Source: a virus
Length of the DNA: 64,000 bases
Reading direction: 5' to 3' (one strand)
IMG/VR virus record: IMGVR_UViG_3300045988_070370
Location: 3,495 to 67,494 of that record
Shown: positions 4,863-42,318 of the stretch, in pieces
Position numbering within the stretch: the stretch's first letter is position 1
How the letters are laid out: every line of letters begins with the position of its first letter
The notes under the pieces: model-generated
Told to the model about the DNA's origin: nothing
Seen by the model: only the letters and a program-made list of their open reading frames with translations
The model's database searches: none
Program-made: the position numbers and the translations under genes

Positions 4863-4863
4863 A

Positions 4864-20039: not shown

Positions 20040-20160
20040 TAAAAATAAATGGAATATATTGATTTATATAAAACTTTAAATATTAAACTTTGCAAATACT
20101 AACAGATTGAAAGTTTTATCCAAATTAAAGAAACAAAAAGTTTCAGAATGAAAGTAAATA

Positions 20161-20190
20161 TCCCCCGAAAGCCTTATGCTTTCAGGGGAT
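20161..20190 (-). terminator. Hairpin immediately after the giant ORF stop
   Basis: CCCCGAAAGC-CTTAT-GCTTTCAGGGG is a 10-bp stem with one bulge. The downstream U-tract is weak. Confidence 0.45.
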
Positions 20191-20198
20191 AGCCATAT

Positions 20199-23100
20199 TT
20201 ATTTTTTCTTAGCATTCGCTTTCTGGTTAGCCACAACTACCTTGTTAGCCTTCTCCAGCACGGAAATAATCTTCTTTCTCAGTTCACGAATCTGTTTCAT
20301 GTCCTCAGCGTTGTAGGCATCCTTGCCATCATCCAGAAAACCTTTCTTCAACTCGGAAATCTCCTGCTTATCAAGGGAAATCTCATCAATGGCATCAATG
20401 GCAGCCTTGTTGGTGTTGTAGTAGCCATCACTCTGACTAGGAGCCGTATCAACCAAGAGGTCATAGGAAGTCTTGAATCCGTTCAGTTTGGTGTAGAGTT
20501 GTTTCAGCTTCAAGTCCTCGAAATCATCCTTTGGGGTAGCATGAGCCTTGTATATATCCTCGGCATTCAACTTGTGAGGTCTATACTCCTCCCCACTCTC
20601 CTCAGCACGTTCCTTCTTCTTGTCTTCCTCATACTTCTTCACCTTCACATCATCCTGCTTATACTGCTTATACTCCTCTGAGCCGTAGAACCGCTCCAGC
20701 ATAGAGTAATCTCCATCCACCTTAGCTTGTTTCTTCAACTTGCTCAGGGTATTGGCTGCACGGTCGTGGTTCTCCTTCATATCCCAGAACTCATCACCTT
20801 GTTTCTTTGTAACCGGTCTATCATCAGGATTGCTGACGAACTTGCTGAATAATGGAATATCAGCCACCTTGATTTCCTTCGGGTCGTTGAGTGACTTGGT
20901 AAGAACACCGAGCACCTGACTGCCCATGGTGTAAGCACCACCGAGATAAGAAGACAATACATGGTCAACCACAGCAGGGTTATTCAGATTGTATCTTGGG
21001 TCACCGAAAGCATCTATGCTATTCTGCTGCACATCAGGATAGTCGTTTCCGATTGAGTTAACCATCTTGGACGCACGAACCAACCAATCAGGAGTGCCCA
21101 CGTATGCCTTGGTAAAGTTAGGATCATACTTGTTGTACTCTGTGTCCTTGAATAATGGCTTGCCAGTGAAGTCAACATTGAAAGCCAACTCAAAGACTGG
21201 ACGAATAGCATTCGGCATCAGACTGACCGCAATATTGCCATCATATCCAGTAGGGTCGAGCGGAAGCATATCCACCACCTGACCGAGCAAGTCTTCACCA
21301 TACTGACTCCAACTCTCCTCAGCCAACTCGCCACCCATCATCTTGGATGCAATCATATCACCCAAGCCATAGAAAGCACGGAACTCCTGAGCAAGAGGAA
21401 TCTTCACAAACTCATGAGTAAACGGAACCCACATAATCAGGTTGTTTCGTCTATCCCACTTGGTGAACTGCCAGTACTTATCCTTATCATCATCACCACC
21501 CAACATACTCATCAAGGCAGCATTAACGATAGGAACCAGTACACCACTCGCCAACCATGATGCAGTAACAGCCGTAAACTTGAAAGGATGATGCTTGACA
21601 AGCGCACCCAAGGTCTGCAAACTCTGTACCGCTGGATTGATGAAGAGATAGAGGTTTCTAATCATCTGCCAGCCATATTCGCCAGTACCCTTGCGGTTGA
21701 AGTTCAGGGTCACGTCCTTGGCATCATTCACCGCCTCATCAATGGAACGTCCATACTGAATAGAGGTCATGTAAACCGCAAATCGGTTACTATCCTCGAT
21801 TGCTCTATTCAGGAACTCGATACCATCCATGATGGTGTGCCCTACCTTTACTGGGTTCGCCTTCCATCTATCCAAATCCTTCAAGTCGTTCTTGAATTTC
21901 TTCTTCAAGTCTTCCACGTCAAGCGAAGAGACAAAGCCAGTCTCGCCACCATTCATCATAAAGTCATAGAACATCTGTTCCTTTGGAGTAGCGTTTCCGT
22001 TGTTTACCTTCTCTCTCAACTTGCCGTTCTGATAGTCTCTCAGCATGAAACCGAGATTCCAAGAGGTAGCCAGATTCTTTCTTAGCATATAGTTGTATCT
22101 TCCATCCTCACGAATAGCGGTAGATGCAAGGGTCATGGTCAGGTCTCGGAAGTAGTTGGAAGGGATGAAGAGAGGTGAAAGACTGGTATAGGCAGCAGCC
22201 ATCTTTCTGCCCAACCAAGCAGCAGCCCTATCAAGTTTGCCGCTCTGAATCTCTCTTACTCGGTGTGCTCTAGTATTGTTCATCGCCTGAGCCAACTGAG
22301 GGTCACCATTCACATAGATAACGTACTCCTCGCCATCCTTCATCACTCTTACCTCATGTTCTCTCTCCTCGCTGTGAGTCTGAGGATAGGCTATGTTCAA
22401 TCCGTCTCTCTTCTGAGTAGCATCGCCAGTCTGAGCCATCTGCTCCATCTTCTTCTCGAAAGCATCAATGGCAGTCTTCACCTGATTACTATTCATCTGA
22501 GAAGTAATCTGAGGTGTAGCAGGAATCCACTCTTCGTTTCCGTTGGCATCCGTACTCTTCACGTACCAAGCCTTGCTCAGGGTCAGCAGGGAAGTTGGAT
22601 GATTCTGAGCCAAGAGCATCAGGTGTTGCTTCACCCAGTTCTTGTTGTTCAGCAGGATTCCACTCTCTGCCATATTCTCGATGTAGGCGATAGGGTCGTC
22701 AGCGATAGAGGTTCGTCCGTGTGCCGTTTTCAAGGTTTGATTGAACGCACCCTTGCCACCACCAATATAGTCCCATACTTGGTCGGCAGTAGTGCCATCC
22801 CAGCCACGGAGAGGAATATAATGGCTATACATATCTCGCACATACTGATAAGTATCTTTGCTCATCATGCCAGCCTTATAGCCATCACGGAGAATCTTCT
22901 TGGTAGCCGCATTCGTTGCGTCCCAGAGGTTGTGAGTCTCGGTTATATACTTACTCTCAATATCCTTTATCAGTTTGTGGGCAGCTTCCTCGAAGTCTGA
23001 GCCATCAAATAGAGCAGACAAGCCTGAGTAATCGTAGGCGATACCCATCTTATCATAACGATAGTTCATATAGGATGGAGAGTATTTCACTCTGAGTGCA

Positions 23101-26100
23101 TTATCTCTCTGTCTCCAAGTAGTGAAGTCTATGTAGCCAAGTTCAAAGCCGCTATCATTGCCCATTCGGTTCATGTCGCCCTTGTAAGCCCTGTATGCCG
23201 CACTTCTCTGAGCCACGTCCTCATAGTCAGCTTCCAGAGACTTCTTGAAAGCCATCTGAGCATCACGCTCCAAACCATGCTTAGCCATCATGTAGATACG
23301 GACATTGTCATAACTATCACCCAGCACCTTCTTCATCTGATGATAAGCCTTTCTCAATGGCTGCAAGAACTCATTGTTGTACTCCTCGAACTCGTTCTTA
23401 CCCTTGCCATGACTTCTGTTCTCGGCAGTATAGGCATCCTCAGCCATGTTCAGGCGGTCAACACCCACTTCCTTCATAATAGCTTCCTGAGCCTTGCGGA
23501 TAGCCAGCATACTATCTTGGAAGGCGATTCTTTTGAGCACAGAACCACGCTGCAACTCTCGGTTGAACTCTCCAAGGGCAGTATCATCACTCAGAAGATG
23601 CTGTTCGTAGGTTGGAGCAGTCTTCCACAGAGCCATCTGTTTGCGGTAGTCGTCCACTCTCCTCAGGAAGTCAACGGCACTCTCGCCAGCGTTGCGTTGT
23701 GGGATGGATGGTCGCTTGGCATCCTTAGGCAGATTATTATCCTTCTTCCACTGGTTCAGGTCGTGCTCAAACTGGTCATAGCGCAAGGAGAATCGGGTAT
23801 TACCAACGATATTGGCATTGTTCTCATCGAATATCACGTAGTTGTAATCGCCTTCCTTAGCACCGCCAAATATATTACCAGCCTTATACTTGATACCAGT
23901 GAAACCAATAGAAGACAGGAACTTACTAACTGCACGACTAGCATCTACATCTTTCCACTTTTTTGTTCTTCTTAAAGCATACATTAGAAAATCATAGGCA
24001 TTACCGCCAAATGAACCATCAAAAGAAAAACCACGCTTTTTAAAGTCGTCAAAATCTATTTTTAATCGCCTTAATTCTTTAATGATTGTATTCTTCTGTT
24101 TATCTGTCAAAGGAGCATCCCAATCAAGATAATCTCCATTATCATCAGGAATATCCACATCATAAAGATAAGCAATATTATCAGGAACAGCTATTTCCTC
24201 ATTCTTCTTTGCAAGAATATTGCTAAGTTCCTTTAAATCATCATCATCAGGGAACATTTCTAGAGCAGAAGGAAGGTCTTTTCTCATAGCATCCAATCCC
24301 TTGTTTACATCTTTATATTTATAGATATATTGTCTTACCATATCTTTGTTATTGGCAGACATATCTGTCACAAATTCAAAACCGCCATTATCTTTCCTTA
24401 TCTTGGCACGTCTTGTGTAGTCCTCAGCAATATCCTTAGAGTTAGTAACATAACCACCCCAGCCAAACGCTTGTGAACCTTCGCCTTCACCCATGTGGCT
24501 GAAATCGAACTTATCAAAGCTAGCCCCAGTACCATGATAGGTGCGGATGCTAAACTTAGGGTCAGAACCAGTAAGCAGTGGAGCAATCACATGCTCGGTC
24601 AACTGGGTAGGGATTCCGTTGCCGATGATGGTATGGCTCAGATTTTCAGAGAATGGCATCTTGTAATCATCGCTCACTCCTGATACTCTTGCGAGCACTC
24701 TGCCCATAGCACGATACACCTTGCCATCAGGCATAACAATCACATCACCACTCTTGGTTCGGAGCGTTGGCAGGAGTTCGTCAGCAAAGGCATGAGGAAT
24801 CTTGCCATCAGCATAAGCACTACCCATCACATACAATGGCTTGTCAATGTTTCTCCAGTCAATGCCATCAGCCTTCAAGCGAACGTCCATCCAAGGAGCC
24901 ACACCATTCTTCTTCTCGGTCAGTGTCGGGATAATATCAGCCACAGCTTCATACCATCCGCTCTTGTGTGCCATCTTCTTTGGCTTGTCAGGAAGTTTGC
25001 CATCACGAACCGCACGGACAATCAATCTCTCTCGGTTGGTGTAGCCGCCATAGTCAGCAGCATTATAGACATCAGCATCCCAAGTATAGCCATTGGCATC
25101 CAGCGCATCCGTGATAGTCTTCATCGCTTCTGAATCCTTATATCCCTTCACGTTTTCAATGGTCACAACCTTTGGCTTGATAGCATTGATGAACTCGGCA
25201 GTACTTGCAGCAGTCTCCTTGTCAAGTTCCAACTCAGCATGGTTACTCTTCGCCTGAGAGTAGTTCTTGCAGACTGGGCTGGCATGGAAGTACTCTACCT
25301 CGCCATCTATCTGTTTCACCAACTCCTTAGGGTCAACATCACGAACATCAGCAGTAACGATGTGCTGTCCGAAGTTGTTGCGATATACACCGCTTATCTT
25401 CTCATCATACTCCACTGCCACTACTGGGTCGATGATACCCTTCAAGCCTTCCTCAACAAGACCGCCACCGCTAAAGTATGTTCCAGCCTTAATGAGAGTG
25501 CCATCCTTCAGGGAGAACTTAGGCTCCTCGCCAGCAATCTCTGCCTTGCGGTTCTCGCCCAGAGCCTGAGCAATATGAATCATCTTCCTGTTAGCCATCT
25601 GCCAGCCGCTCGGCATATCATCAATGGCAGTCTTGATAGCATCATCCACCTCATCAGGAGTGTTCAGACTCTTCAAGTCCTCAGCCATATCAGCCGCCCC
25701 ACTCTCCTTTCCGTCAGCCATATCACGGAGAGAGAAGGACACATCGCCAACGCCCAAGAAAATCTGGTCTTTGCGAGCCACGTCCTCAGTAGATTCAGCG
25801 AGAGTTTTTCTTCTCTCCTCAGGAGTCATGTTAATTCGGGCAGACACATTACGAGCTTCCACCTCTCCAGCGAGTGACTTGTAACTGTTGTAATCATCAT
25901 TCGCCTGATAAGCATTATAAAGACCTCTGTTCTTCTCAACAATAGCCTTAGCCTCATCTTCCTTGCCTTCTGCACGCAACTGGCGAATCTGCTTAGTAAC
26001 CTCTGCTAATCTCTTCTTAATCTCACCTCTAACCAATCTAGGGCTACCTCCTCTATCAAAGCCCTCAATAGACTGGATTGCATGCTGAATCTCGTGATTC

Positions 26101-29100: not shown

Positions 29101-32100
29101 TCAGGAGTAACGTCCTTATGTCTCATATAATTACGCTCAAAGATATTCTTCTTGATAACAACTGGCTTGCCTTCTGTTCCGATAGCATCAGCAATTTTCT
29201 TTGGTAAACTAGGCAATTCTACATTTCTGGTAGGATGCAAGAAGTCTTCATCCGTCAATTCATCAACGGACTTAATCTTATCCAGCTTCAAAGTACCATC
29301 CTGATTCAGAGGATTCCCCTGATTATCCTTCAACGAGAACTTTACCTTAGTATAGTCTTTAAATGGCTTTAGCTTACGTTTGCTTGTATCAAGCCACTTG
29401 TCGAACTCATCCTTACTTACTCCAGTAATATTTCCAAGACCTTTCCATCCCTTGCTATAGTTGGCGAGATAAGCCTTTTCTGCATCATCCATGGAGTCAT
29501 AGCCGTACATCACCTTATGCTCATCAAACGAGCCATCAGGATTCACTTGGTCAACGACAAACACATCACCATCCCAATTATCAAGGTCTGCCTTGTCGTT
29601 AATAAACATATCCAGATGGTCGCCATCCTTACCGAACTTACCACGGATATAGCCATAGGTATCGTGCATGGTTACTTTCCACTCTTTGCCATTAGCATCC
29701 TTGCCTGAGCGAGTCGAACCCTTTGGATTCTCTATAGTATAATCGTAGCCACCGAACTTGATGTGTCCCTTCTTGTAGTTGCCACTCTCTTTCTGTGCGT
29801 CAGACGGATTGGTTTCTGTTTCTTCAATAGCAGACTTCAAACGGAGAGAGAACTTGGTGTGATTAGTAATTTGAGCATTGTTCTCGTCAAAGATAACATA
29901 GTTCATCTTGCCTTCCTTGTTACCGCCAGTAGTGCGGTCTGCAATAACCTTAACTCCAACAATACCTTGCTTATTTAAAGCCAAAGATGCTAACTTATCG
30001 GAATGCAGGACTTTGGAAAGTTCGCTGTAAAGCCCATTACCTTTTTGTCTATTCCACAACTGCCAATACTGATACTTTCCATTCTCTGTCTTCTCAAAGT
30101 AATCGTAGTTCCCATCAGAATCATACATAGTATAGCCATCTTCCTCCATAACACGTCTCTTTGCTTCGAGCATTTTAGGAGTGATAGGCTCATCCCATCC
30201 GATGTAGTTATCACCAGTATCATCAGGAATATCAACAGAGTAAAGGTTTCGTGGTTTTCCTATGGAATCCAACTTCTTCTGCAAAGCGTCAATCTTAGTC
30301 TTTACATCTTTGATGTCACTTTCCTTAGTTTTTACATTCTGCTTATATTTTTCAACCTGTTCGCTATAATACATAACATCAGATTCGTACATGTCAACAC
30401 CAAGACCTGTGCCACTTTCCTTTGCCTTTGAAAGTTCTCCCTTAGCCTCATCAAGTCTTGATTGGTACAAATCTACATAGGATTTTGCATCTTTCAACTC
30501 ATCCTCCAATAAATCAAGACCAGACTTGGTATCTGCCAAATTCTGTGCGACAGTATCATAGTCTTCATTAATCTTAAAGTCAGAAGGATTCAAACCTTTC
30601 AAAACATTCAGCTCATCTTGAACTTGCTTGGCTTTCATCTTCGCAAACGGGGTGTCGTCAACGGATGCAAGTTTCTTCTCACCAGCATCTATCATCTGTG
30701 ATATAGCCTCTTTAGCGGAAATGTTAAACTTATCCATATTAAAGGCAACTTGATAGATAATTGATGGAGTTTTATACGTCATAGGTTTATCTTGATACAT
30801 CAGTCTTGAAGGTGCATTCTTCTTTGCATTCTGCTTAGCATAAGCCTTGGCAATACCTTCCACCTCGCTTACATAGGTTCCCCAGCCATAAGCCTGAGCA
30901 CCCTCACCACTACCCATGAAGGAGTGGTCGAACTTGTCAAACGATGCTTGGGAGCCGTGATAAGTCTTGATGGAGAACTTAGGAGCATCAGCTATCTCCT
31001 GATTAATGCTGTTCACAACATCATCAGTAACAATATCGCCCTCCTGAATCTGCTGAGGTTCACGACCAGCCTTGCTTACCAAGTCAGCTTGCTCTGCTCT
31101 GGTCAAGATACGGTTCACCTTCATCGCACCAGTAATCACCCAAGGGTCAGTCTCAGGGTTCGGATTGGTACGATACATATAATAGCCATCAGTAGGCAGA
31201 TGTTTCAGACCAGCCAATGAATGCTGATACTTACCAGATGGATTGATACCCTCTTGGCGAGCTTCCTCCTGATAATCAACATCAGCAGCATATTCCACCT
31301 CAGCGAAGACGAAGTTCTTAGGAAAAAGAGTCTTGTTTCCCTCAGCATCCTTGCGGTTGAACTGGATAGCGTAAGGCACTACACCAAGATGCCAGCCTGG
31401 TCTATAGGCTAGCTTACCGCTACCGCCTTGTGTTCCCTTGCCGCCCTGCTTAACCTGAGGTCTGCCAGTCTTGCTTTCTCCTGCTATAGGAGCCGCATCG
31501 GCATCGAGCCATACACCAACTGGAGTAGCAGCACCATCAGGGTTCGCTACCATTGGTGGATAGAGTTTGCCATCCTTTAGCACGAACACCTTGTAGCCGA
31601 CACCCTTCTTCTTAGGTTCAGGCTTTTGACGGAGAGAGAACGAAACATCTTCGCCAGTCTCAGAGTTTGTCACCTCACCTTTGGCAGTCTTCACGTAGGC
31701 TTGTTCGATAGAGCGGATGATGTTCTTGGTCACATCGCTATACTCAGTACCAAAGAATGCCAACTTAATCTTCTGCAATATCTCATGGATAGCAGCGAGC
31801 AGAGGATGAGACATCTTCATAGCGAGAGTATGAGCCAAGTTGAGGTCACGAATCATTTCACCTACCGCATCAGCAACAACCTCCTCAGCATAGTAATCTC
31901 TAGCACGTCCAGAGAATCCAGCATCGGAATATCTCAGCATGGTCTCATCTACCGCCTTGTCGAAGGCATCAGAGCCATAGGTATCAAGCACAAGCTGAGT
32001 CAACTCATTGTATGCAGCAGGGTTCAGGCTCTTGATTTGGTGAGTCATTTCGTGACCGAAGATGAACTGGGCACCTTCCGTGATGGAAGAGTCTAGAGTG

Positions 32101-35100
32101 ATGAAGATTGTACGATGAACGTTGCCATCAGCATCCTTGGTCTCCTGAATCCAGCCGTTGCCCAACTTGTCGGAGTACTGCCACTGAATGTTGGCACCCA
32201 TCATCTTAGCCAGTCTCTCGAAAGCCTTGCGAGTTTTCTGCCCCACGATGTTGTCAACGACCTTCATATCATCCACCTTATTCTTCTCTACGTCGGCTGC
32301 ACGCTCGGCAGTTGTCTGCTGCTTGCCATTCTCCTTAGCAGAGAAAGGAAGGTCAGATTCATCAAGTTGTTCACCCAAAGGCTTCTCATCCGTTGCATCC
32401 TCGGGAGCCTCAATAGCATTGCTACCCTCTCTTAGTGTGTCAGGGAACTTTGTCTGCTCATTTACAAAATCTCTAAACTCTTTAGCGGTAGCAGCATCAT
32501 AGAACGTTGCACCTTCTGTGATTTCGCTATCTATATTAGAAGAATGATTGAGGTCACGTCCTGCATTGAACTCCTCTTGCAGTTTTCCGAGTTGCTCAAC
32601 GACTTCCGCATTGTCTGGGAAATAAATCACTTGGTTTATATTCTTGCCCTCATCAGGAACAAGAGTACTAACACCAAAGCCATCTTTGCACATCAAGAAC
32701 AAATCAGCGTAGCTATTTAACTTAGATGTAGGGTCTATCTCTAAGCCTTGCTTCTTTGCCCATTTTGCAAGTTCTATAATATTGTTATTAATAGGTTCTC
32801 CTTGTTTATCAATAGCTGGTAAATCTATATTCTCCTCAGCCTTTTTCTTTTCCTCTTCTGCTTTCTTCTCCAGTTCAGCCTTTTTCTTTTCTTCCTCCTC
32901 CTTAGCTTTCTGTTGCTCGTAATATGCAGCATTCTCAGCAGCAGTCCTTTCTTCTTCAATGAGTTTTTCTGCCTGAGCGATACGAATATTCTCAATAAAA
33001 CTTCTTGCTTCCGAAGCCTTGAAACCGCTTGTGAGCACATCAATAAGAGCATTACGAATATCTTGTGTATCGAGAGATTCAAGGTTGGATGGACGATTAT
33101 CCCACAGACTATGTACGAGTGCATCTATAGTCGTTCCTTTGCCATCAGCAGCGAGCAACTGGGTCTTGGCAAAGTCTTCTCTGCTCAATCCAGTCTCTTG
33201 CTTAACACCCTTGCTTGTTTCTGTTCCCTCATAGTTGAGAGAGTGAGCACCGAGGTTGCTAGCCACATACTCCTCAGCAGTAAGCGGAATGGTATCTGTC
33301 ACATCAATGCCTGTACCATCATACAGACGATGCAGCAGAGTTCCAACCGTCTCCTTATAGATTTGAGCAACAGCCTCTGCATCATCCTTCACCGCACTCT
33401 TCAAGCGAGCAAACTTTCTTCTTGCCTTCTCAATAAGATTCTTTCTGCCCTCAGCAGTATCTTCCACCTTGGCAAGTTGTCGCTCATTATAGGCATCACG
33501 GATAGCGATAGCAGAGTCATAAGCCGCCTGAGCATCAGCAATAGCCTTCTCCTTAGCATCCTTGGAAGCCTTCTGTTCTAAGAAAGTCTTACCCTTCACG
33601 GTCATGTTGTTAGCCTTGTCGAGTGCCTTCTTTGCATCAGACACATATCCAGATACGATACTATCTGCATCCTCACCAAACTGATTATCATATAGCTCAG
33701 CAGTCTGTGCGGCAGTCAGCTTCGAGAAGTCAGGATTGCCATCCTCCAGCATAGGTACGATGGTTCCATCTTCAAGGGTAATGGTAGGAGCAGCAGGAGT
33801 CTGTTCTGTTGCAGGAGTCTCAGTAGTCTCATCAGAAGGAGCAGTAGTCTCTGTATTCTCTGCTACCTCAGGAGTTGTTTCATCCTCTATTGTAGGAGAT
33901 TCCACCTCTATCTCACCTCTATTCTCTCCACTATTATCCTCTATCATTGAGGAGGCAGCAAATGCTTGCTTATACTCATCGAGCGACATAGAAGAGATTG
34001 TAGCCACATCTTCTTTGTTCACAGCATGAGGAACAATAGTACCATCACTCTTCAACTCAACTACCTTAGCCTTAGCACCAGTATCACGAATAAGGAACAA
34101 CTTGGAGTCAGGGTATTTAGTGTTACCATCCTCATCAAGTACATCAACGAGCACCACGTTTCCATTATCATTAAGTATTTGATTGAAATCAAATGAAGGT
34201 TGAGTCTCTTCTGTCTCCTGAGTCTGTTGGTCTGCACGTTCCTTCTCCAACTGCTCACGCTGAGCCTTAGCAGCTTCCAGTCTCTTCTGGTCTTCCAAGT
34301 CTTTCATCTGCTGCAAGTCTGCAAGCGAATAAGGATTCTCCACCACGTTACCATCTATAGAGACAGCAGCAGTACCATCACCATAATCAGCCAACACCTC
34401 ATAGGTATGTTCAATACCATCAGTATCAGTCACATTGAACTGAGAGCCAACCTCTACAGTTCCGTCAATGATGCCAGCAATCTCTTTGATAGCATTCTCT
34501 TTTGCATCAGCTACCGCCTGAGCCTTCACATCATCAGCAGGAAGTTCTTCACCCAGTTCAGCAAACATCAACGCATCAGCATGTTCTACACTATTCGTTG
34601 TCGGGTCGTAGTAGAGAATCATATCATCACTATTGCTTACATCAATAGAACCATCTTCATGAGTAGCAATATTACCGCTGATAATATACACACCATAATC
34701 TTCCAAACCGCCTGATGCTTTGATGGTAGCGTTACGAACGGAGCCACGACTTCGGTCTGTGTACATATCCACTTTCTGTGCCGCCTGATGAGCAGCTATA
34801 TCAACCTTGTCTTGTGCATCATCAATCACACCTTGGTATCGGGCAGAAGACAACTGATAATCATAGATAGCTTGGTCAAGTTTATCATCCTGTCCTGTCA
34901 GGGATTCCAGTTCCTCATCACTCATGGCAGATAGCTGCTGCTCAGAGATGCCAAATGCTGCTGCAAGAGTCTTCATCTGGTCTTCCTGCTGAATCTGAAT
35001 ATCATGCTTGTCTGCATCATCTGCATTATGACCTTCCGTATAAGCATCATCAAGGTCGTTTGATAATGTTGGAGCAGTATCACCTTCTTCAACCTTATCT

Positions 35101-37253
35101 TTTGTCTTTGCATCTGATGCCTGATTGAATCCACGAAGTTTGCTAAGGAACATAGCATAATTGATAACTGCACCTTTTTGCTTAGCAGTCATGGAGTCTG
35201 AGCGAGTAGCATCCAAGACAGTCTTAGTCAAGTCTGCATTGGTTGACACATCAATTTTGCTTTTTATTTCGTCCCAATTATCATTAAACAACCATTGACC
35301 GAACTTGTCTGCTTTGTTGACCTGATGCTTAATCTTGAAATATTGAACTGCATTTATAGCGCCAACAGCAGTTCGAGGAGCCTGCATGAAACCAACAGAA
35401 TAGAACATTCCAAGGCAAGTATCAATCTGCTTTTCTCTCGCATCAGGATTTGTGAAAACATTGAAGTCACTCCAGCTTCCGTCTCCATCACCCCATGCAG
35501 CATGAAGGGCAGTACCAAATTCCTCTTCGGAAATCTCAGCCATCACACCTTGTATTCCAGACTTGTTGGTTGCATTGCTCAACCATTTATAGTAAGCATT
35601 ATTGCCTATCTTTTCAAAGAAGGAAGATACTTTTGAAAGACCCAACTTAGACAACAACTTAGACGCACCAGGCAGATACTCACCGAACATTTCCGAGAAG
35701 TTCTCTATTGTAGCTGAGCCAAAGCCATCCTTGATAGCCTTACCAAGACTGACACCTTCATTGAACTTCAAATCGCCATTCTTGTCTTGGGTCACACCTC
35801 CATTCTCGTTGTTCATTCCAACATAACGTTCTATCACATTATTATATGTAGAACCAAGTTGGTTGGTAGCTGCCAATGCTGCACTACCAGTCATATCACC
35901 GAGCATACGACCAGTATTTTTAGTAAACCATTTGCCAAGAGCACCGAGAGCCATTTTCTCTCCAACCTTTTCTCCTGTCTTGGTGAAACCAGTGGTCATA
36001 ACATTTCTCCAGCCGCTTAACGCAAAGTCTCCCATGAACTTTAAGGAGCGACCGCTCACATCTCCATACTGATAAGCCTTTGTGCCATACTGCTGCTGTT
36101 TAGCAGCTTCTCCTTGTTGCTGCTGAATAGCACCAAGCATAGCTTGTGCTGCATTTCCTGCATTGGAACCTTTCTTGATTGTTCCATCTTCCATGCCCTT
36201 CTTTACTTGGAGCAAATTGTTTGATATAGCTGCATCCATAACACCCTGAGAATATAACTTCGGGTCAAGCATGGTATTAAACATCGCACCAAAATAATTG
36301 GAAACGTCATTCCACTTATCTTTCCACCAACCAGCATTTTCATTTCTCTGCTTTTGTTCCTTCAACTCCTGAAGCAGAGTTGTACGCAACATCTGATTGT
36401 AAGCCTTGGCGGTATTATAAGCACCATACTCTACATCAGACAAGCGGTTTGCCTCATTGCTTATAGCTGTATTAAATGAAGAAGGAGCAACTGCTCCACC
36501 AGATGCAACAAAAGGAGAACCCTGCAAGTGCATAGACTCATTCAATTCCTTAGAACGTCTGTCCTGATTCTCGTTAAGCCACTCTTGTCTTCTCTCCATT
36601 TGTCGCATAGCAACATCTGTGTCGGACAAATCTGGGTCAGCCTTATCCAATTCAGAAGGAACAATGCCCATATCAACTGCATTGTTCCACTCTTCCCCAT
36701 ATTTATCCAACTGGTTCTGATACTGGGAAGCATCATACTCGTTGTCGAACTCTACACCATCTGTTGTAGTATAGGTTCCAGTCTTGCCTGTTGTCGAATT
36801 GTAGTTGAACTCATTCTTCTGTACATTCTTATTCTGTAAAGGATTCTTGAAACCGATAGTCACCTTACCACCATTTGCATTAAACTTCTTTGCTCGCTCA
36901 ACCGTCTTACGGATATTGCCAGATGCACGCTTAACTTGTCTAGCAGTATTCAGGACAGATTGTGTCACAGACAAGTAACGAGCACGGTCAGCAGCACTCA
37001 TAGGTACACTACCACCCTTCGCCCTTGATGATGTCCTACTACGAGGTACAAAGAGTGCAGAATAGAAACGCTCATAAGTAGATGGAACATCAAAGTTCTG
37101 AGCCTTCAAGTTCTCATAAATAGCGTGTCTGTTATCTGCACCGCTCTTTCCGTCTCTGGTCAGGGCACTTTCAAACTTATTGTAATCATCAGGCACATCA
37201 TAGTTCTGTGCTTTCAGATTCTTGTATAAAGTGTATAATGGTCTTTCTGCCAT
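20199..37253 (-). CDS. Giant polyvalent virion/ejection protein (5,684 aa) with multiple embedded enzyme modules
   Basis: One uninterrupted 17,055-nt ORF, co-oriented and tightly spaced with two ejection-like protein genes. Modules read from motifs are listed as separate features below. Confidence 0.85.
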   Translation of the reverse strand: MAERPLYTLYKNLKAQNYDVPDDYNKFESALTRDGKSGADNRHAIYENLKAQNFDVPSTYERFYSALFVPRSRTSSRAKGGSVPMSAADRARYLSVTQSVLNTARQVKRASGNIRKTVERAKKFNANGGKVTIGFKNPLQNKNVQKNEFNYNSTTGKTGTYTTTDGVEFDNEYDASQYQNQLDKYGEEWNNAVDMGIVPSELDKADPDLSDTDVAMRQMERRQEWLNENQDRRSKELNESMHLQGSPFVASGGAVAPSSFNTAISNEANRLSDVEYGAYNTAKAYNQMLRTTLLQELKEQKQRNENAGWWKDKWNDVSNYFGAMFNTMLDPKLYSQGVMDAAISNNLLQVKKGMEDGTIKKGSNAGNAAQAMLGAIQQQQGEAAKQQQYGTKAYQYGDVSGRSLKFMGDFALSGWRNVMTTGFTKTGEKVGEKMALGALGKWFTKNTGRMLGDMTGSAALAATNQLGSTYNNVIERYVGMNNENGGVTQDKNGDLKFNEGVSLGKAIKDGFGSATIENFSEMFGEYLPGASKLLSKLGLSKVSSFFEKIGNNAYYKWLSNATNKSGIQGVMAEISEEEFGTALHAAWGDGDGSWSDFNVFTNPDAREKQIDTCLGMFYSVGFMQAPRTAVGAINAVQYFKIKHQVNKADKFGQWLFNDNWDEIKSKIDVSTNADLTKTVLDATRSDSMTAKQKGAVINYAMFLSKLRGFNQASDAKTKDKVEEGDTAPTLSNDLDDAYTEGHNADDADKHDIQIQQEDQMKTLAAAFGISEQQLSAMSDEELESLTGQDDKLDQAIYDYQLSSARYQGVIDDAQDKVDIAAHQAAQKVDMYTDRSRGSVRNATIKASGGLEDYGVYIISGNIATHEDGSIDVSNSDDMILYYDPTTNSVEHADALMFAELGEELPADDVKAQAVADAKENAIKEIAGIIDGTVEVGSQFNVTDTDGIEHTYEVLADYGDGTAAVSIDGNVVENPYSLADLQQMKDLEDQKRLEAAKAQREQLEKERADQQTQETEETQPSFDFNQILNDNGNVVLVDVLDEDGNTKYPDSKLFLIRDTGAKAKVVELKSDGTIVPHAVNKEDVATISSMSLDEYKQAFAASSMIEDNSGENRGEIEVESPTIEDETTPEVAENTETTAPSDETTETPATEQTPAAPTITLEDGTIVPMLEDGNPDFSKLTAAQTAELYDNQFGEDADSIVSGYVSDAKKALDKANNMTVKGKTFLEQKASKDAKEKAIADAQAAYDSAIAIRDAYNERQLAKVEDTAEGRKNLIEKARRKFARLKSAVKDDAEAVAQIYKETVGTLLHRLYDGTGIDVTDTIPLTAEEYVASNLGAHSLNYEGTETSKGVKQETGLSREDFAKTQLLAADGKGTTIDALVHSLWDNRPSNLESLDTQDIRNALIDVLTSGFKASEARSFIENIRIAQAEKLIEEERTAAENAAYYEQQKAKEEEEKKKAELEKKAEEEKKKAEENIDLPAIDKQGEPINNNIIELAKWAKKQGLEIDPTSKLNSYADLFLMCKDGFGVSTLVPDEGKNINQVIYFPDNAEVVEQLGKLQEEFNAGRDLNHSSNIDSEITEGATFYDAATAKEFRDFVNEQTKFPDTLREGSNAIEAPEDATDEKPLGEQLDESDLPFSAKENGKQQTTAERAADVEKNKVDDMKVVDNIVGQKTRKAFERLAKMMGANIQWQYSDKLGNGWIQETKDADGNVHRTIFITLDSSITEGAQFIFGHEMTHQIKSLNPAAYNELTQLVLDTYGSDAFDKAVDETMLRYSDAGFSGRARDYYAEEVVADAVGEMIRDLNLAHTLAMKMSHPLLAAIHEILQKIKLAFFGTEYSDVTKNIIRSIEQAYVKTAKGEVTNSETGEDVSFSLRQKPEPKKKGVGYKVFVLKDGKLYPPMVANPDGAATPVGVWLDADAAPIAGESKTGRPQVKQGGKGTQGGSGKLAYRPGWHLGVVPYAIQFNRKDAEGNKTLFPKNFVFAEVEYAADVDYQEEARQEGINPSGKYQHSLAGLKHLPTDGYYMYRTNPNPETDPWVITGAMKVNRILTRAEQADLVSKAGREPQQIQEGDIVTDDVVNSINQEIADAPKFSIKTYHGSQASFDKFDHSFMGSGEGAQAYGWGTYVSEVEGIAKAYAKQNAKKNAPSRLMYQDKPMTYKTPSIIYQVAFNMDKFNISAKEAISQMIDAGEKKLASVDDTPFAKMKAKQVQDELNVLKGLNPSDFKINEDYDTVAQNLADTKSGLDLLEDELKDAKSYVDLYQSRLDEAKGELSKAKESGTGLGVDMYESDVMYYSEQVEKYKQNVKTKESDIKDVKTKIDALQKKLDSIGKPRNLYSVDIPDDTGDNYIGWDEPITPKMLEAKRRVMEEDGYTMYDSDGNYDYFEKTENGKYQYWQLWNRQKGNGLYSELSKVLHSDKLASLALNKQGIVGVKVIADRTTGGNKEGKMNYVIFDENNAQITNHTKFSLRLKSAIEETETNPSDAQKESGNYKKGHIKFGGYDYTIENPKGSTRSGKDANGKEWKVTMHDTYGYIRGKFGKDGDHLDMFINDKADLDNWDGDVFVVDQVNPDGSFDEHKVMYGYDSMDDAEKAYLANYSKGWKGLGNITGVSKDEFDKWLDTSKRKLKPFKDYTKVKFSLKDNQGNPLNQDGTLKLDKIKSVDELTDEDFLHPTRNVELPSLPKKIADAIGTEGKPVVIKKNIFERNYMRHKDVTPELSKVIFKSALYNPDLYGQNQKKTRPYNWVLINTKDEKGNNRTVLLEVNPNKDNVEIVHWHFVNDKNLGLIKKQAIREGDQVLILPSEQSEEVGGLSNLTDDLSAAKIDNSSETAKENGEKFSLKDEKTLAGVHNITEEKLRKALKLGGFANPSLAVIDTNKSGHDNFGEISFIAPSALVDKRTGKTAGTWITDAYTQRYPSVERQMSEKGSQKFEDWVDSLEYPSAAKAEIKRQTKDVMEDNGVPAWELMYLKEKGIDIKAYDSRIDYRWKEIINDHPTAEDILSSMQNDPELNEKVTSLAKHAIIHPTWEKVSLEVRRKMYKETGVKASPINPQVRKQTKEIFERDYKSTLLNKDGSPRKKDVKKVVEDIVKEHNDTKKYDFYLSKVKASNYVNKNGLYDDYIRWQENKLDEFGTKNRIFRGYTKDGSRKYVPETLENVSKAMREEADGQTNGSEYTSFGSFIAKLASRVDSTDEMRANKDKLSSNEDKEAFYEKWSEVYYDLAKFLYNDVFYGEQRLHDIVLQSDPKKYAKKEYGITLTPTFMKKLDALKNAVQTELKSAYFETKYNRPLRLNEFAAAVVPDNLGEDVRKGIEDAGLPMYDYDPNKEGDRSRAFNEAINSSDNIRFSLKAEKEKIVADAKSNGTYMTAPNGEKTKLDAEQWATVRTANFKNWFGDWENDPENASKVVDENGEPMVMYHYTDESFTIFGKDKEVGKNTFGNATNASYAATTTIGHWFTSNKKQPEYMGKPMACFLNIVEPFDGYTLEGLADYLNNYISDEDFNSYEEDYENVAPIIEAGNNFREEQIRDGYDGVVIDDEEFGGTSYVAFNANQIKSAENNNGDFSADNNDIRFSLAGERGAAAADKAEERTARMDFLSVARKMEEEKKDAKAIKMATGWERGADGKWRYEMPDAKIKDTMDVGGGQIVKRYEEDMLWNGGKLSKVIDAPELFKAYPQLKDVRIETDAIMNDMPSNGEYNAKTNTITIHADELKYMNSILNHEIQHAIQSIEGFDRGGSPRLVRGEIKKRLAEVTKQIRQLRAEGKEDEAKAIVEKNRGLYNAYQANDDYNSYKSLAGEVEARNVSARINMTPEERRKTLAESTEDVARKDQIFLGVGDVSFSLRDMADGKESGAADMAEDLKSLNTPDEVDDAIKTAIDDMPSGWQMANRKMIHIAQALGENRKAEIAGEEPKFSLKDGTLIKAGTYFSGGGLVEEGLKGIIDPVVAVEYDEKISGVYRNNFGQHIVTADVRDVDPKELVKQIDGEVEYFHASPVCKNYSQAKSNHAELELDKETAASTAEFINAIKPKVVTIENVKGYKDSEAMKTITDALDANGYTWDADVYNAADYGGYTNRERLIVRAVRDGKLPDKPKKMAHKSGWYEAVADIIPTLTEKKNGVAPWMDVRLKADGIDWRNIDKPLYVMGSAYADGKIPHAFADELLPTLRTKSGDVIVMPDGKVYRAMGRVLARVSGVSDDYKMPFSENLSHTIIGNGIPTQLTEHVIAPLLTGSDPKFSIRTYHGTGASFDKFDFSHMGEGEGSQAFGWGGYVTNSKDIAEDYTRRAKIRKDNGGFEFVTDMSANNKDMVRQYIYKYKDVNKGLDAMRKDLPSALEMFPDDDDLKELSNILAKKNEEIAVPDNIAYLYDVDIPDDNGDYLDWDAPLTDKQKNTIIKELRRLKIDFDDFKKRGFSFDGSFGGNAYDFLMYALRRTKKWKDVDASRAVSKFLSSIGFTGIKYKAGNIFGGAKEGDYNYVIFDENNANIVGNTRFSLRYDQFEHDLNQWKKDNNLPKDAKRPSIPQRNAGESAVDFLRRVDDYRKQMALWKTAPTYEQHLLSDDTALGEFNRELQRGSVLKRIAFQDSMLAIRKAQEAIMKEVGVDRLNMAEDAYTAENRSHGKGKNEFEEYNNEFLQPLRKAYHQMKKVLGDSYDNVRIYMMAKHGLERDAQMAFKKSLEADYEDVAQRSAAYRAYKGDMNRMGNDSGFELGYIDFTTWRQRDNALRVKYSPSYMNYRYDKMGIAYDYSGLSALFDGSDFEEAAHKLIKDIESKYITETHNLWDATNAATKKILRDGYKAGMMSKDTYQYVRDMYSHYIPLRGWDGTTADQVWDYIGGGKGAFNQTLKTAHGRTSIADDPIAYIENMAESGILLNNKNWVKQHLMLLAQNHPTSLLTLSKAWYVKSTDANGNEEWIPATPQITSQMNSNQVKTAIDAFEKKMEQMAQTGDATQKRDGLNIAYPQTHSEEREHEVRVMKDGEEYVIYVNGDPQLAQAMNNTRAHRVREIQSGKLDRAAAWLGRKMAAAYTSLSPLFIPSNYFRDLTMTLASTAIREDGRYNYMLRKNLATSWNLGFMLRDYQNGKLREKVNNGNATPKEQMFYDFMMNGGETGFVSSLDVEDLKKKFKNDLKDLDRWKANPVKVGHTIMDGIEFLNRAIEDSNRFAVYMTSIQYGRSIDEAVNDAKDVTLNFNRKGTGEYGWQMIRNLYLFINPAVQSLQTLGALVKHHPFKFTAVTASWLASGVLVPIVNAALMSMLGGDDDKDKYWQFTKWDRRNNLIMWVPFTHEFVKIPLAQEFRAFYGLGDMIASKMMGGELAEESWSQYGEDLLGQVVDMLPLDPTGYDGNIAVSLMPNAIRPVFELAFNVDFTGKPLFKDTEYNKYDPNFTKAYVGTPDWLVRASKMVNSIGNDYPDVQQNSIDAFGDPRYNLNNPAVVDHVLSSYLGGAYTMGSQVLGVLTKSLNDPKEIKVADIPLFSKFVSNPDDRPVTKKQGDEFWDMKENHDRAANTLSKLKKQAKVDGDYSMLERFYGSEEYKQYKQDDVKVKKYEEDKKKERAEESGEEYRPHKLNAEDIYKAHATPKDDFEDLKLKQLYTKLNGFKTSYDLLVDTAPSQSDGYYNTNKAAIDAIDEISLDKQEISELKKGFLDDGKDAYNAEDMKQIRELRKKIISVLEKANKVVVANQKANAKKK
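23796..24542 (-). other. YHGT module copy 2, aa about 4238-4486
   Basis: KFSIRTYHGTGASFDKFDFSHMGEGEGSQAFGWGGY ... GDYNYVIFDENNANI. Confidence 0.35.
24558..25505 (-). other. Complete C5 cytosine DNA methyltransferase module, aa about 3917-4232
   Basis: Motif I is YFSGGGLVEEG (25461-25475). Motif IV is HASPVCKNYS. Motif VI is IENVKGY. Motif VIII is YTNRERLIV. Motif X is IGNGIPTQL. Confidence 0.8.
25740..26528 (-). other. Zincin module 2 (HEIQH at 26082-26096), aa about 3572-3838
   Basis: TGWERGADGKWRYEMPD...ITIHADELKYMNSILNHEIQHAIQSIEGF. Confidence 0.55.
26544..27206 (-). other. YHYT module (divergent third copy of the YH[GY][ST] module), aa about 3346-3570
   Basis: VMYHYTDESFTIFGKDK...GYDGVVIDDEEFGGTSYVAFNANQI. 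The start and end architecture matches the two YHG[ST] modules. Confidence 0.3.
29343..29840 (-). other. Inorganic-pyrophosphatase-like module, aa about 2470-2637
   Basis: GNYKKGHIKFGGYDYTIENPKGSTRSG...TYGYIRGKFGKDGDHLDMFI...VFVVDQ...FDEHKVMYGY parallels the NYGYI...DGDPVDV core of family I PPases. Confidence 0.45.
29856..30980 (-). other. YHGS module copy 1 (possible H-Y-E-type ADP-ribosyltransferase-like), aa about 2092-2466
   Basis: It starts KFSIKTYHGSQASFDKFDHSFMGSGEGAQAYGWGTY and ends GKMNYVIFDENNAQI. It contains a coiled-coil insert. Confidence 0.35.
32040..32054 (-). other. Zincin motif 1 (HEMTH) in the giant protein, about aa 1734
   Basis: The reverse complement reads FIFGHEMTHQ. 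Confidence 0.6.
37053..37238 (-). repeat. Tandem protein repeat LYxNLKAQNxDVPxxYxxFxSAL (2 copies) at the giant-protein N-terminus
   Basis: PLYTLYKNLKAQNYDVPDDYNKFESAL and HAIYENLKAQNFDVPSTYERFYSAL. Confidence 0.7.
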
Positions 37254-37272: not shown

Positions 37273-38409
37273 TTAACACAACCAGTTCACACCAGTCTTC
37301 TTCTTACCACCTTTGTTGGATGATGGCTTATGGTTCAGTTTACCCTTACCATGCTTACGCTGATAAGCAATCTTCTGAGCCTTCTTTCCAGCAGCAGTCT
37401 TCGGTGAGTAACCCATCTTCTTCACTTCCCTTGCAGCCTCAGCCATGCCCTCAGGGTCTTTTTCCATCAAATCCATGTACTCATCTACCTCTCCTGAGTA
37501 TGAGCCAGTTCTCGAACTGCCACCGCCCGACGACTTGTTAGCACGAATACGACCAGTCTCAGCATTCATACGCTGGATAGCCTCCTGCGCTTGCCAATGA
37601 GAAATCTGCCCATCAGCCAGAGCCTTCTTGATAGCTAAGACAGACTTCTTATAATCAGCATCAGTATCATACTTCATCTTCGATAAGTCAAGTCTTCTGT
37701 TACCTTGGTCAATTCTCTGTTGACTCTGGTCTAGCTTTGTTTTAGCGATACCCTCATTCTCCACGTTATGTCTAATCTGCTCACCGAGAGTCAGGTTATT
37801 CTTTCGAGCTTCCTCATCAAGAGCCATCGCCCTCTGATAACCAGCCAGCCATGCCGCCCGATTCCTTTCTCTCTGAGCATCCATGTACTCCTTGCGCTTA
37901 TTCACTACCTTAGTCATATCCGACTCAGGATTGTGTACCACCTTGGCACCTTTGGTAGAGAAGTAGATATTAGAGAGCGCACGGAGACCATCACCCAGTG
38001 CAGCGATACGAGCCTTGGTACGTTCCTTCTTCTCTCTATTCGCCTTCTGTTCGGCAGTCTCTTCACGCTCAGGATTCAGTATCTTATACATATCTGCATA
38101 AGATAACTGCTTAGGCTGAGGTTTCTGCTCATCCTTCTTCACGATAGGAACGGAAGGCTTGTCTGTAGGAATAGAGCCATTGAGCATACCCTCAGCAGTC
38201 TGCTGGTTCATCCTTGCAGCCTGTTCGTGTGCATTCTTGGGAGGAGTAAGTTGTTCTCCTTTCCCTTGCAACATAGCTTGTGCAGTATTCATATTCATCT
38301 GCTCAGGACTCGCCTTTTGTGCAGCATCTACACCGCTCTGCTGCTTGTTGAGTACACTCTGTGTAGTCTTCAAGCCATTGTTGTTACGTAACATATCTGA
38401 TGCTTTCAT
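37273..38409 (-). CDS. Internal virion / ejection-like protein (Q/K-rich, coiled coil)
   Basis: ORF 37273-38457. I prefer the start MKASDML (38409), 5 nt after the upstream stop. The protein is highly charged and low-complexity, with a basic C-terminus. Confidence 0.5.
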   Translation of the reverse strand: MKASDMLRNNNGLKTTQSVLNKQQSGVDAAQKASPEQMNMNTAQAMLQGKGEQLTPPKNAHEQAARMNQQTAEGMLNGSIPTDKPSVPIVKKDEQKPQPKQLSYADMYKILNPEREETAEQKANREKKERTKARIAALGDGLRALSNIYFSTKGAKVVHNPESDMTKVVNKRKEYMDAQRERNRAAWLAGYQRAMALDEEARKNNLTLGEQIRHNVENEGIAKTKLDQSQQRIDQGNRRLDLSKMKYDTDADYKKSVLAIKKALADGQISHWQAQEAIQRMNAETGRIRANKSSGGGSSRTGSYSGEVDEYMDLMEKDPEGMAEAAREVKKMGYSPKTAAGKKAQKIAYQRKHGKGKLNHKPSSNKGGKKKTGVNWLC

Positions 38410-39104: not shown

Positions 39105-39112
39105 CAAAGATA
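39105..39112 (-). promoter_or_regulatory. -7 promoter box (TAtcTTTG on minus strand) for the ejection-protein operon
   Basis: The plus strand reads caaagata, 32 nt upstream of the ATG at 39073. Confidence 0.5.
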
Positions 39113-42235: not shown

Positions 42236-42284
42236 GTTCTTAACATTTATCTCCCATTTTCTTGCAAGTAACAAAAAATATAAT

Positions 42285-42292: not shown

Positions 42293-42318
42293 CAGCGAAA
42301 ACCATAATAAGGAGGCTT

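Follow-up and report, generated by a model that had tools for sequence, protein, structure and literature searches.

The window analysed here is a stretch of 64,000 nucleotides from the virus record IMGVR_UViG_3300045988_070370 of IMG/VR (positions 3,495 to 67,494 of that record), and the subject of this report is the giant minus-strand gene that it carries at 20199..37253. The open reading frame (ORF) starts with ATG and encodes 5,684 amino acids (aa) followed by a stop codon, without any internal stop; the uninterrupted 17-kb frame claimed in a preliminary description of this DNA was thus borne out. No ORF longer than 245 aa was present in the other frames of the same interval. The exact 5,684-aa protein was found on six contigs from different sources, its 90% cluster contained versions of 5,681-5,734 aa from other assemblies, and one variant occurred on 13 contigs, where the four places fetched came from four different sequencing runs. 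The same intact ORF is therefore seen in independent assemblies. Furthermore, IMG/VR held 204 contigs with a relative of the C-terminal module, 80 of which were fetched, these being at least 89% identical over that module. The longest ORF measured about 4,500 aa or more in 65 of these 80 loci, and nearly all of these ORFs reached the 5' end of the locus, indicating that in most related loci the frame runs without a stop across the 10 kb that precede the C-terminal module.

The translation is marked by a recurrent peptide. The pattern FS[LIV][KRA] occurs 11 times, compared with 0.44 copies expected and a count of 11 reached in none of 2,000 shuffles, and every copy lies at a module border. A twelfth copy, FSAK at aa 1637, is captured by the looser pattern FS[LIVA][KRA], which then marks 12 module borders. 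Taken over 276 distinct contexts, the consensus of the junction is [KR]-F-S-L-[KR]. The twelve motifs (aa 1637-4488) divide the protein into an N-terminal region M0, eleven cassettes M1-M11 and a C-terminal region M12.

Modules of the giant protein

From the N- to the C-terminus, the modules are as follows.

32346..37253, minus strand: M0, aa 1-1636, constant N-terminal region with a duplicated Y.NLKAQN.DVP..Y..F motif at aa 10 and 46, then acidic and mostly unannotated; free of the junction motif.
31641..32345, minus strand: M1, aa 1637-1871, HEMTH zincin-like module and candidate processing protease, nearly always present in relatives that cover the region.
30978..31640, minus strand: M2, aa 1872-2092, the 'YKVFVLKDGKLYPPMV' module, very widespread and highly conserved; phrog_30118.
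29853..30977, minus strand: M3, aa 2093-2467, YHGS module resembling ADP-ribosyltransferases (ART-like), a paralogue of M11 with an insertion.
29340..29852, minus strand: M4, aa 2468-2638, InPase (type I inorganic pyrophosphatase-like), from Pfam.
28740..29339, minus strand: M5, aa 2639-2838, LPD13 module, from Pfam.
27219..28739, minus strand: M6, aa 2839-3345, PBECR5 (predicted BECR-fold RNase), then about 400 aa matched by phrog_22978.
26541..27218, minus strand: M7, aa 3346-3571, predicted ART-PolyVal ADP-ribosyltransferase module (YHYT), from Pfam.
25737..26540, minus strand: M8, aa 3572-3839, LPD23 and HEIQH zincin-like module, always followed by M9 in relatives.
25518..25736, minus strand: M9, aa 3840-3912, short module of 73 aa bounded by junction motifs, from a family of 40 members of 68-73 aa.
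24555..25517, minus strand: M10, aa 3913-4233, predicted complete C5 cytosine DNA methyltransferase, from Pfam.
23793..24554, minus strand: M11, aa 4234-4487, YHGT ART-like module, the paralogue of M3.
20202..23792, minus strand: M12, aa 4488-5684, constant C-terminal carrier of 1,197 aa, mostly helical, with a hydrophobic helix at aa 5234-5252 (nt 21498-21554) and LPD38 at aa 5258-5468 (nt 20850-21482).

The eleven cassettes thus comprise two zincin-like modules, three ART-like modules, InPase, LPD13, an RNase-like PBECR5, a C5 methyltransferase and two modules of unknown function. Within this one ORF, the following Pfam families all scored above their curated cutoffs: InPase in M4 (aa 2485-2621, E 1e-51, profile 1-134 of 135), LPD13 in M5 (aa 2651-2792, E 2e-48), PBECR5 in M6 (aa 2843-2940, E 5e-19), ART-PolyVal in M7 (aa 3408-3563, E 3.8e-17, full profile 1-140 of 140), LPD23 in M8 (aa 3582-3635, E 3e-11), DNA_methylase (PF00145) in M10 (aa 3927-4223, E 7.7e-29, profile 7-319 of 324) and LPD38 in M12 (E 1.4e-22). 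The order of modules given in the preliminary description proved correct, with the two modules that it had left unnamed corresponding to LPD13 and PBECR5. The motifs that it had read from the translation were all located (HEMTH at aa 1734, YHGS at aa 2098, YHYT at aa 3417, HEIQH at aa 3720 and YHGT at aa 4239), as was the N-terminal duplication. M10 aligned with M.HhaI and M.HaeIII across about 280-296 residues, and its translation displays FSGGG, PVC, ENV, RERL and GNGIP motifs, including the catalytic Pro-Cys; that Cys is one of only four in the 5,684 residues, M12 having none. Matches of M3 (aa 2096-2209, E 3.7e-5, 24.9 bits) and M11 (aa 4237-4281, E 3.6e-5) to ART-PolyVal fell under the Pfam cutoff of 31.2, and both also matched DUF3990 weakly. 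The paralogy of the two modules was apparent from their alignment, with 61% of residues identical in the first 49 aa and 34% in the last 165 aa. A PHROG label, 'DarB-like antirestriction', came from a composite profile that matched in the InPase region only. Neither a helicase nor an N6A methylase was found in the giant protein, C5 being the only methylase (Pfam, NCBIfam), and there was no match to a single-subunit RNA polymerase domain (Pfam, PHROG, NCBIfam) or to an SLT domain, lytic transglycosylase or lysozyme (Pfam). In PDB entry 9b41, residues 636-762 of chain L (a phage 'gp19 portal') form an InPase domain that matched aa 2497-2631 of the giant protein (E 2.5e-25); its first half had no other sequence match in the PDB. 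InPase is thus fused directly to a portal in another phage, which fits a capsid-internal location.

Residues 1-1500 had no match in Pfam, PHROG or NCBIfam. Residues 281-1028 of M0, which has a net charge of -99, were homologous to the N-terminal region of the giant proteins of two Bacteroides phages, BKO1-TP3 gp55 and BS-TP4 gp3; in a phmmer comparison, M0 had no match among the Vibrio, Burkholderia and phi24B-type giants. A diverged version of the tandem N-terminal motif (LY..L...GY/NYD.....F..., aa 1-70, window 37100-37253) is found, likewise duplicated, at the start of BKO1-TP3 gp55 and BF1-TP2 gp68; the motif could be a capsid-targeting or portal-docking signal.

We modelled M1 and M2 together with AlphaFold2 (AF2). 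The model had a mean predicted local distance difference test score (pLDDT) of 78, and in M1 a helix was followed by a sheet of three strands and by further helices, HEMTH lying inside a helical segment, a topology that agrees with the zincin core as described by Iyer et al. A Foldseek search of this model against the PDB returned weak matches only (E 0.05-0.6), with zincins among the top ones. The best match, anthrax lethal factor, has a non-significant E of 0.05, so that M1 is a putative zincin. M1 usually neighbours M2 in relatives, where M2 was its sole right-hand neighbour. M2 itself was matched at 40-99% identity in all 124 homologues listed, and had neither a Pfam family nor a convincing PDB fold match in the Foldseek search of the joint model. 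To judge from its sequence matches, M2 is a very common, as yet unnamed domain. Its homologues also include small proteins of 260-460 aa on contigs longer than 100 kb, and fusions to DUF4406 (PF14359) and PF14550.

Cassette exchange and the junction peptide

Breakpoints taken from the ends of BLAST alignments were muddied by the fragmentation of M0 and by cross-matches between paralogues, and clustering of motif-delimited segments was used instead. When 81 related ORFs were cut at the junction motif, 851 segments were obtained that clustered into 56 families, with only 27 singletons. Lengths within families were very tight (e.g., 221-221, 354-354 and 321-332 aa). Together with the small number of singletons, this indicated that the stretches between motifs behave as whole units.

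Architectures were compared for the 67 ORFs that are complete from M2 to M12, i.e., that of the window and those of 66 related Prevotella-phage loci, 54 of the 67 being derived from one IMG data set. As many as 62 distinct architectures were observed, two of which were found again in independent data sets. The cassette order was collinear across the ORFs, each position resembling a slot, and the number of cassettes between M2 and M12 varied from two to ten. The frame M0-M1-M2 ... M10-(M11)-M12 was usually kept, and the HEMTH module M1 belongs to this constant frame. Relatives also contained cassettes that are missing from the window, namely PBECR1, MuF_C, LPD3, a HEMLH zincin and several of unknown kind. 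A shorter form of 3,342 aa with seven junction motifs was seen in the complete chromosome of Segatella copri HDE04 (NZ_CP152346.1; locus L094, positions 572-10600). It ends about 198 residues into M12 and may represent a decaying prophage or a truncated variant.

The junction motif persisted in the Prevotella-phage clade down to about 58% M12 identity. At the border before M12, [KR][FY]SL[RN] was kept from 95% to 58% identity, though both flanks change completely. The flanks of the junctions were somewhat more polar than average, and in the AF2 model the linker preceding the M1/M2 motif had a pLDDT below 50. The motif as a general feature of polyvalent proteins was rejected, because neither the Bacteroides phages nor the Burkholderia phage DC1 nor relatives with an M12 identity of 38% or below have it. 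A cleavage site of this kind would be peculiar to the clade.

Carrier module, operon and phage genome

In addition to LPD38, M12 was matched by phrog_14770 (aa 4578-5554, E 2e-140). An AF2 model built from 27 sequences was mostly helical (pLDDT 75, predicted template modelling score 0.62). The preliminary description had mentioned hydrophobic helices near the C-terminus; a Kyte-Doolittle scan confirmed one strong helix (aa 5234-5252), so that the plural was overstated. Profile searches of the PDB with the M12 and M1 alignments gave chance matches only, and the notion of M12 as a T7-gp16-like or otherwise structurally known ejection protein was dropped after a Foldseek search of the PDB (best E 1.1). 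Against BFVD, the M12 model gave 72 matches at E<=1e-3. The listed entries came from phage proteins and were for the most part C-terminal fragments of long chains with additional lysozyme, RelA/SpoT, helicase or methylase domains; among them was a fragment of a polyvalent protein of PTXU04, presumably gp25.

An exhaustive phmmer search of M12 against 1.84 billion cluster representatives retrieved 5,259 relatives at E<=1e-3 and 1,380 at E<=1e-30, a family that is very large and barely described. In the best 145 relatives the module was C-terminal; their median length was 4,413 aa, 43 measured at least 5,000 aa and 19 at least 5,684 aa, the largest reaching 7,236 aa. The size of the giant protein thus lies in the upper range of its family and is not exceptional, and the view that such a size had not been described was overstated, the more so as BKO1-TP3 gp55 (5,553 aa) is already deposited. 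The same method revealed homology of M12 to the C-termini of Vibrio phage NVP1205O_20 (3,130 aa, E 4e-35), phi24B vb_24B_48 (2,807 aa, E 2e-30), TL-2011c gp71 (2,263 aa, E 1e-29) and Burkholderia phage DC1 gp67 (4,650 aa, E 2e-26).

The gene is the third of an operon, whose further elements are given here in the direction of transcription.

39105..39112, minus strand: putative TAtcTTTG box (TATCTTTG), a Bacteroidetes-type -7 promoter-like element read from the sequence, 32 nt before the ATG of the first gene.
38414..39073, minus strand: upstream partner 1, 219 aa, N-terminal glycine-zipper hydrophobic helix, then Q/K-rich; T7 gp14-like.
37273..38409, minus strand: upstream partner 2, 378 aa, charged and Q/K-rich predicted protein.
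20159..20191, minus strand: intrinsic-terminator-like hairpin that closes the operon directly after the stop codon of the giant gene, with a 14-bp stem containing 7 G-C pairs, a loop of 5 and a T-rich tail.

The box was termed promoter-like on the basis of TAnnTTTG, the consensus of Bacteroides promoters; the box, the hairpin and the two small genes all lie as the preliminary description had stated. Partner 1, whose hydrophobic segment spans aa 2-20, matched Pfam T7_gp14 (PF24072) over profile positions 3-176 of 187 with E 1.1e-5 and 25.8 bits (gathering cutoff 27), and precomputed hits likewise rate this match as weak. It has homologues at the same position in BKO1-TP3 (gp57) and BF1-TP2 (gp70), and BS-TP4 gp1 matches it partially. 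Partner 2 had no match in Pfam, PHROG or NCBIfam. Its homologues BKO1-TP3 gp56 and BS-TP4 gp2 occupy the equivalent place, which in phi24B, TL-2011c and Vibrio phage 1.205.O is held by proteins of 421-442 aa, only the Vibrio one being annotated as coil-containing. The layout of a small, a mid-sized and a giant gene in the same orientation recurred in BKO1-TP3, BS-TP4, BF1-TP2, TL-2011c, phi24B and Vibrio phage 1.205.O.

The window represents a temperate phage genome, which besides the genes below holds a recombination and replication module.

2164-4200: P22-like portal gene (P22_portal 5e-36, Pfam).
5371-6909: SU10-type major capsid protein gene (SU10_MCP 3.5e-28, Pfam).
8716-10929: large terminase gene (phrog_2).
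42262-43479: tyrosine integrase gene.

No tape-measure or tail-tube genes were noticed in the ORF lists or among the few proteins scanned, no systematic search having been made, and this fits a podovirus. Neither the portal nor the capsid protein had a sequence match in the PDB. Genomic relatives were present in Prevotella metagenome-assembled genomes and in the S. copri HDE04 chromosome. When the whole gene was compared with 50,697 GenBank phage records, no megablast match was obtained, and hence there is no close cultured relative at the DNA level in that set.

Several other genes of the window deserve mention. In the replication module, a second, free-standing C5 methyltransferase gene (53562-54344, plus strand) was recognised by a Pfam match that ends at position 227 of 324 (E 4e-53). 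About 560 nt downstream, a 150-aa ORF (54909-55361, plus strand) contains a GNSIVTNCL-like motif and has no Pfam match; the two may be a split or interrupted methylase gene. A hydrophobic ORF of 191 aa that overlaps the start of the terminase ORF (8228-8803, plus strand) shows GLSGFIYAY and conserved His residues. Structure alignment underlies the annotation of its counterparts in BKO1-TP3, BS-TP4 and BF1-TP2 as rhomboid proteases; for this ORF, the assignment had no Pfam support at E<=0.001. A phage rhomboid beside packaging genes would be unusual. At 59420-60460 (plus strand), a 346-aa protein contains DUF7666 followed by about 20 tandem GSSGD(S/Y)A(Q/K)I nonapeptides (about 59770-60310), which Pfam reads as collagen-like. 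Near the integrase, precomputed Pfam hits on identical neighbours pointed to a 234-aa RNase H-domain protein (40067-40771, minus strand) and a 396-aa protein with retropepsin-like Asp_protease_2 and gag-asp_proteas matches (44432-45622, minus strand).

Proposed function and comparison with known systems

Polyvalent proteins are believed to go to work before any other phage protein once a cell is infected, and experiments have revealed almost nothing about their packing, delivery and processing. In our view the likely product of the gene is a polyvalent protein of the phage type, made by a temperate, podovirus-like Prevotella/Segatella phage and built from the constant M0, eleven cassettes, most of them enzymes, and the constant M12; it would be packaged, ejected and active early in infection, and perhaps cut at the junctions. 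The protein would be made late, together with the T7-gp14-like membrane protein and the second small charged protein, and a few copies would be packed within the capsid. At infection, it would exit via the portal and tail ahead of or with the DNA, while the M12 carrier and the two small partners would help to bridge the cell envelope. In the first minutes of infection the cassettes might then do their work in the new host: the methyltransferase M10 may shield incoming DNA from restriction, the ARTs may modify host proteins as T4 Alt does, and the RNase-like (PBECR5) and pyrophosphatase-like (InPase) modules may blunt RNA- or nucleotide-based defences, as is argued in passages of Iyer et al. 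(PMC5512222). The HEMTH zincin or another protease might cut the chain at the (K/R)-F-S-L-(K/R) that opens each cassette, freeing the effectors, and the shared linkers would also allow exchange of cassettes among related phages.

On the last point we tentatively propose, as a possibility rather than an expectation, that (K/R)-[F/Y]-S-L-(K/R) at every cassette border is a dedicated cleavage site of the constant-frame HEMTH zincin. The chain would be cut after ejection into about a dozen free effectors, the same connectors and tails would make the cassettes interchangeable, and the lineage would carry a population-wide swappable library of counter-defence functions. If true, this would be the first predicted processing map of a polyvalent protein, and an in-frame, integron-like cassette system within one gene. 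With the junction peptide, possible cut points in the chain are predicted exactly and can be put to the test. Moreover, the cassette polymorphism forms a natural catalogue of candidate counter-defence modules, several of which have no known function (M2, M9 and the segment families f13, f15, f19 and f22). Such a list could direct efforts to find the Prevotella defence systems at which these modules are aimed, and may help to explain the strain specificity of these gut phages, a lineage that the 204 IMG/VR contigs indicate to be abundant in the human gut.

A number of observations weigh against parts of this interpretation. Packaging, ejection and cleavage of the giant protein are, for this phage, predictions deduced throughout from homologues. 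The zincin-like M1 had neither a Pfam match nor a PDB profile match, its assignment being founded on HExxH and a plausible AF2 topology. Neither the Bacteroides-phage relatives nor DC1 nor the relatives whose M12 identity is 38% or lower have the junction motif, and no other tetrapeptide recurs in those proteins. Pfam searches did not find MuF, portal-binding or lysozyme domains in the giant protein. The model of M12 resembled no solved structure, T7 gp16 included, and for this reason its role in envelope crossing is conjecture; the Kyte-Doolittle scan, too, revealed one strongly hydrophobic helix only. The junctions also showed a bias in codon usage (TTC 85% vs 56% background; Ser TCN 95% vs 62%), and tails of 12 aa in the linkers before the motif are common to unrelated cassettes. 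Bias and shared tails fit a recombination connector equally well.

The main rival to the cleavage step, conceivable though doubtful in our estimate, is that the (K/R)FSL(K/R) junctions and shared tails are recombination connectors or scars for in-frame swaps of cassettes among co-infecting phages or prophages and not cleavage sites, with the protein acting as one chain or being cut elsewhere. The unrelated LPD13, PBECR1, MuF_C and LPD3 cassettes indeed share tails (NSSETxKENGEK or TFEEFLNHPSLK) directly before the motif, the bias of the junction codons to TTC and TCN extends to CGY, and the collinear, slot-like order of the cassettes is what homologous exchange would give. Judging from translations alone, the phage also appears to encode a RecT-like annealing protein, an exonuclease and a single-stranded DNA-binding protein. 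Furthermore, N4 vRNAP carries a metallopeptidase (MPTase) yet is packaged uncleaved, according to the account in passages of Iyer et al. (PMC5512222), a precedent that speaks against cleavage. On the other hand, the tetrapeptide is kept despite synonymous variation (Ser TCT/TCC/TCG/TCA/AGC; Leu TTG/CTC/CTG/CTT), through replacement of F by Y and between unrelated flanks, indicating selection on the peptide, and 12 nucleotides are too short for ordinary homologous recombination. Connector and cleavage roles are compatible with each other; the observations fit either reading, and both may be true.

Two further alternatives concern the protein as a whole. It might not be packaged at all and instead be made in the infected or lysogenic cell as a multi-enzyme factor for anti-defence or host takeover. 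The lack of a recognised MuF or portal-binding domain in the window copy (Pfam) would agree with this idea, which we nevertheless regard as unlikely: the gene sits among virion genes and has its promoter-like box in common with the T7-gp14-like protein, relatives carry MuF_C cassettes, and an effector made after DNA entry would presumably come too late against restriction. Giants with the same C-terminal module were, moreover, detected in purified virions, and the probable virion location rests on the M12 homology to phi24B gp47 and to DC1 gp67 of the Bcep22-like group. An origin of the ORF in misassembly, with several genes or strains joined into a chimera, seems scarcely credible. The source is metagenome-type sequence data, and some architectures could be strain chimeras because 54 of the 67 compared ORFs stem from one IMG data set. 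Against this stand the identical protein on six contigs from different sources and the variant on 13 contigs, with its fetched places from different runs; the 65 of 80 relatives whose long ORF is open to the 5' end of the locus; the two architectures seen again in independent data sets; the genes of 5,391 and 5,553 aa in cultured Bacteroides phages; and the cluster representatives of up to 7,236 aa.

The nearest cultured relatives are the giant proteins of temperate Bacteroides phages, BKO1-TP3 gp55 (5,553 aa), BS-TP4 gp3 (5,391 aa) and BF1-TP2 gp68 (3,633 aa). The genomes of these phages measure about 64-68 kb and encode an integrase; two small genes lie upstream of the giant gene in all three, and in BKO1-TP3 and BS-TP4 the portal gene is its immediate downstream neighbour. 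The relationship extends to M0 (residues 281-1028) in gp55 and gp3 and to M12 in all three, at about 31-33% identity. Their central cassettes differ, however, and FS[LIV][KRA] is absent from gp55 and gp3 and present in a single copy in BF1-TP2 gp68. GenBank annotates BKO1-TP3 gp55 as 'DarB-like antirestriction'; the source paper of the phages does not discuss the gene, and neither 'DarB' nor 'antirestriction' appears in its main text. DarB of phage P1 is a large head-packed protein that is injected and shields incoming DNA from restriction. It has a DNA methyltransferase domain and combines an N6-adenine methylase with a helicase. In contrast, the window protein has neither an N6-adenine methylase nor a helicase, and its methylase is a C5-cytosine enzyme.

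In podoviruses, T7 gp14/gp15/gp16 and N4 vRNAP are pre-packed in the head and ejected before the DNA. The weak match of partner 1 to T7_gp14 recalls these core proteins. Unlike T7 gp16 and N4 vRNAP, the latter an MPTase-bearing polyvalent chain of about 3,500 aa as described in passages of Iyer et al. (PMC5512222), the giant protein has no lytic transglycosylase and no RNA polymerase domain, and M12 has no structural likeness to solved chains. Of the polyvalent virion/ejection protein postulated in the preliminary description, the polyvalent type (from Pfam domains) and the podovirus/ejection context stood; an 'ejectosome core' in the sense of T7 gp16 was overstated. Further parallels are offered by the podoviruses phi24B (vb_24B_48) and the 933W-like Stx-phage TL-2011c (gp71), whose C-terminal 700-900 aa or so are homologous to M12 and whose giants are likewise preceded by a small and a mid-sized gene. 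phi24B gp47 (2,811 aa), which we equated with vb_24B_48 by size, was abundant in virions by mass spectrometry and absent from the cryo-EM map, and was proposed to be a capsid-internal ejection protein (bioRxiv 10.64898/2026.04.10.717836). These giants are half the size (about 2,260-2,810 aa), carry LPD5, LPD1 and MuF-C in place of a long effector string, lack FSL(K/R) junctions and have N-terminal regions that are not detectably related. The Bcep22-like giants of Burkholderia and Ralstonia podophages (Bcep22 gp75, JC1 gp69, DC1 gp67) share a multi-domain build, at 4,500-4,650 aa, and the C-terminus of DC1 gp67 is homologous to M12. For JC1 gp69 (4,515 aa), 51 unique peptides were obtained by mass spectrometry of CsCl-purified virions, and the same study groups it with DC1 and Bcep22 gp75 as Bcep22-like 'DarB-like' proteins (PMC9144972). 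They differ from the window protein in their lytic transglycosylase, helicase and methylase, in the absence of the junction motif and in their proteobacterial hosts. PTXU04 gp25, a polyvalent protein of 2,198 aa, was needed for plaque formation in a CRISPRi-ART screen (PMC11879866).

Phage-type polyvalent proteins contain 2-15 domains each, with InPase and LPD38 restricted to this type, and occur as mosaics such as H. pylori jhp1044, as set out in passages of Iyer et al. (2017, PMC5512222). The window protein is similar in combining ART-PolyVal, InPase, PBECR, LPDs, a methylase and HExxH zincins in one chain, with portal and terminase genes nearby. Tested for the marks of the type, it showed the fused effector/LPD repertoire and a (pro)phage setting with portal-terminase genes. 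It also showed the marks of the LPD38-terminated giant virion proteins of GP4/phi24B/Bcep22-like podophages, namely the LPD38-bearing C-terminal module and the two-gene upstream layout. It deviates in lacking the usual hubs MuF, ArdC-N, SNF2 and N6A-methylase in the window copy, and in its fixed (K/R)FSL(K/R) at every cassette border. Autoprocessing of polyvalent proteins by the MPTase was proposed by Iyer et al. (PMC5512222), in whose passages on the subject no cleavage site or conserved junction peptide is defined. Likewise, no description of a fixed junction peptide or of cassette exchange on this scale was found in those passages or in the titles and abstracts of the papers since 2018 that were listed for polyvalent proteins and phages. 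Since the nearest relatives are already in public databases and jhp1044 provides a mosaic precedent, the giant protein belongs to an already known type; what is new here is the fixed (K/R)FSL(K/R) peptide that joins the cassettes and the swapping of whole cassettes among related phages.

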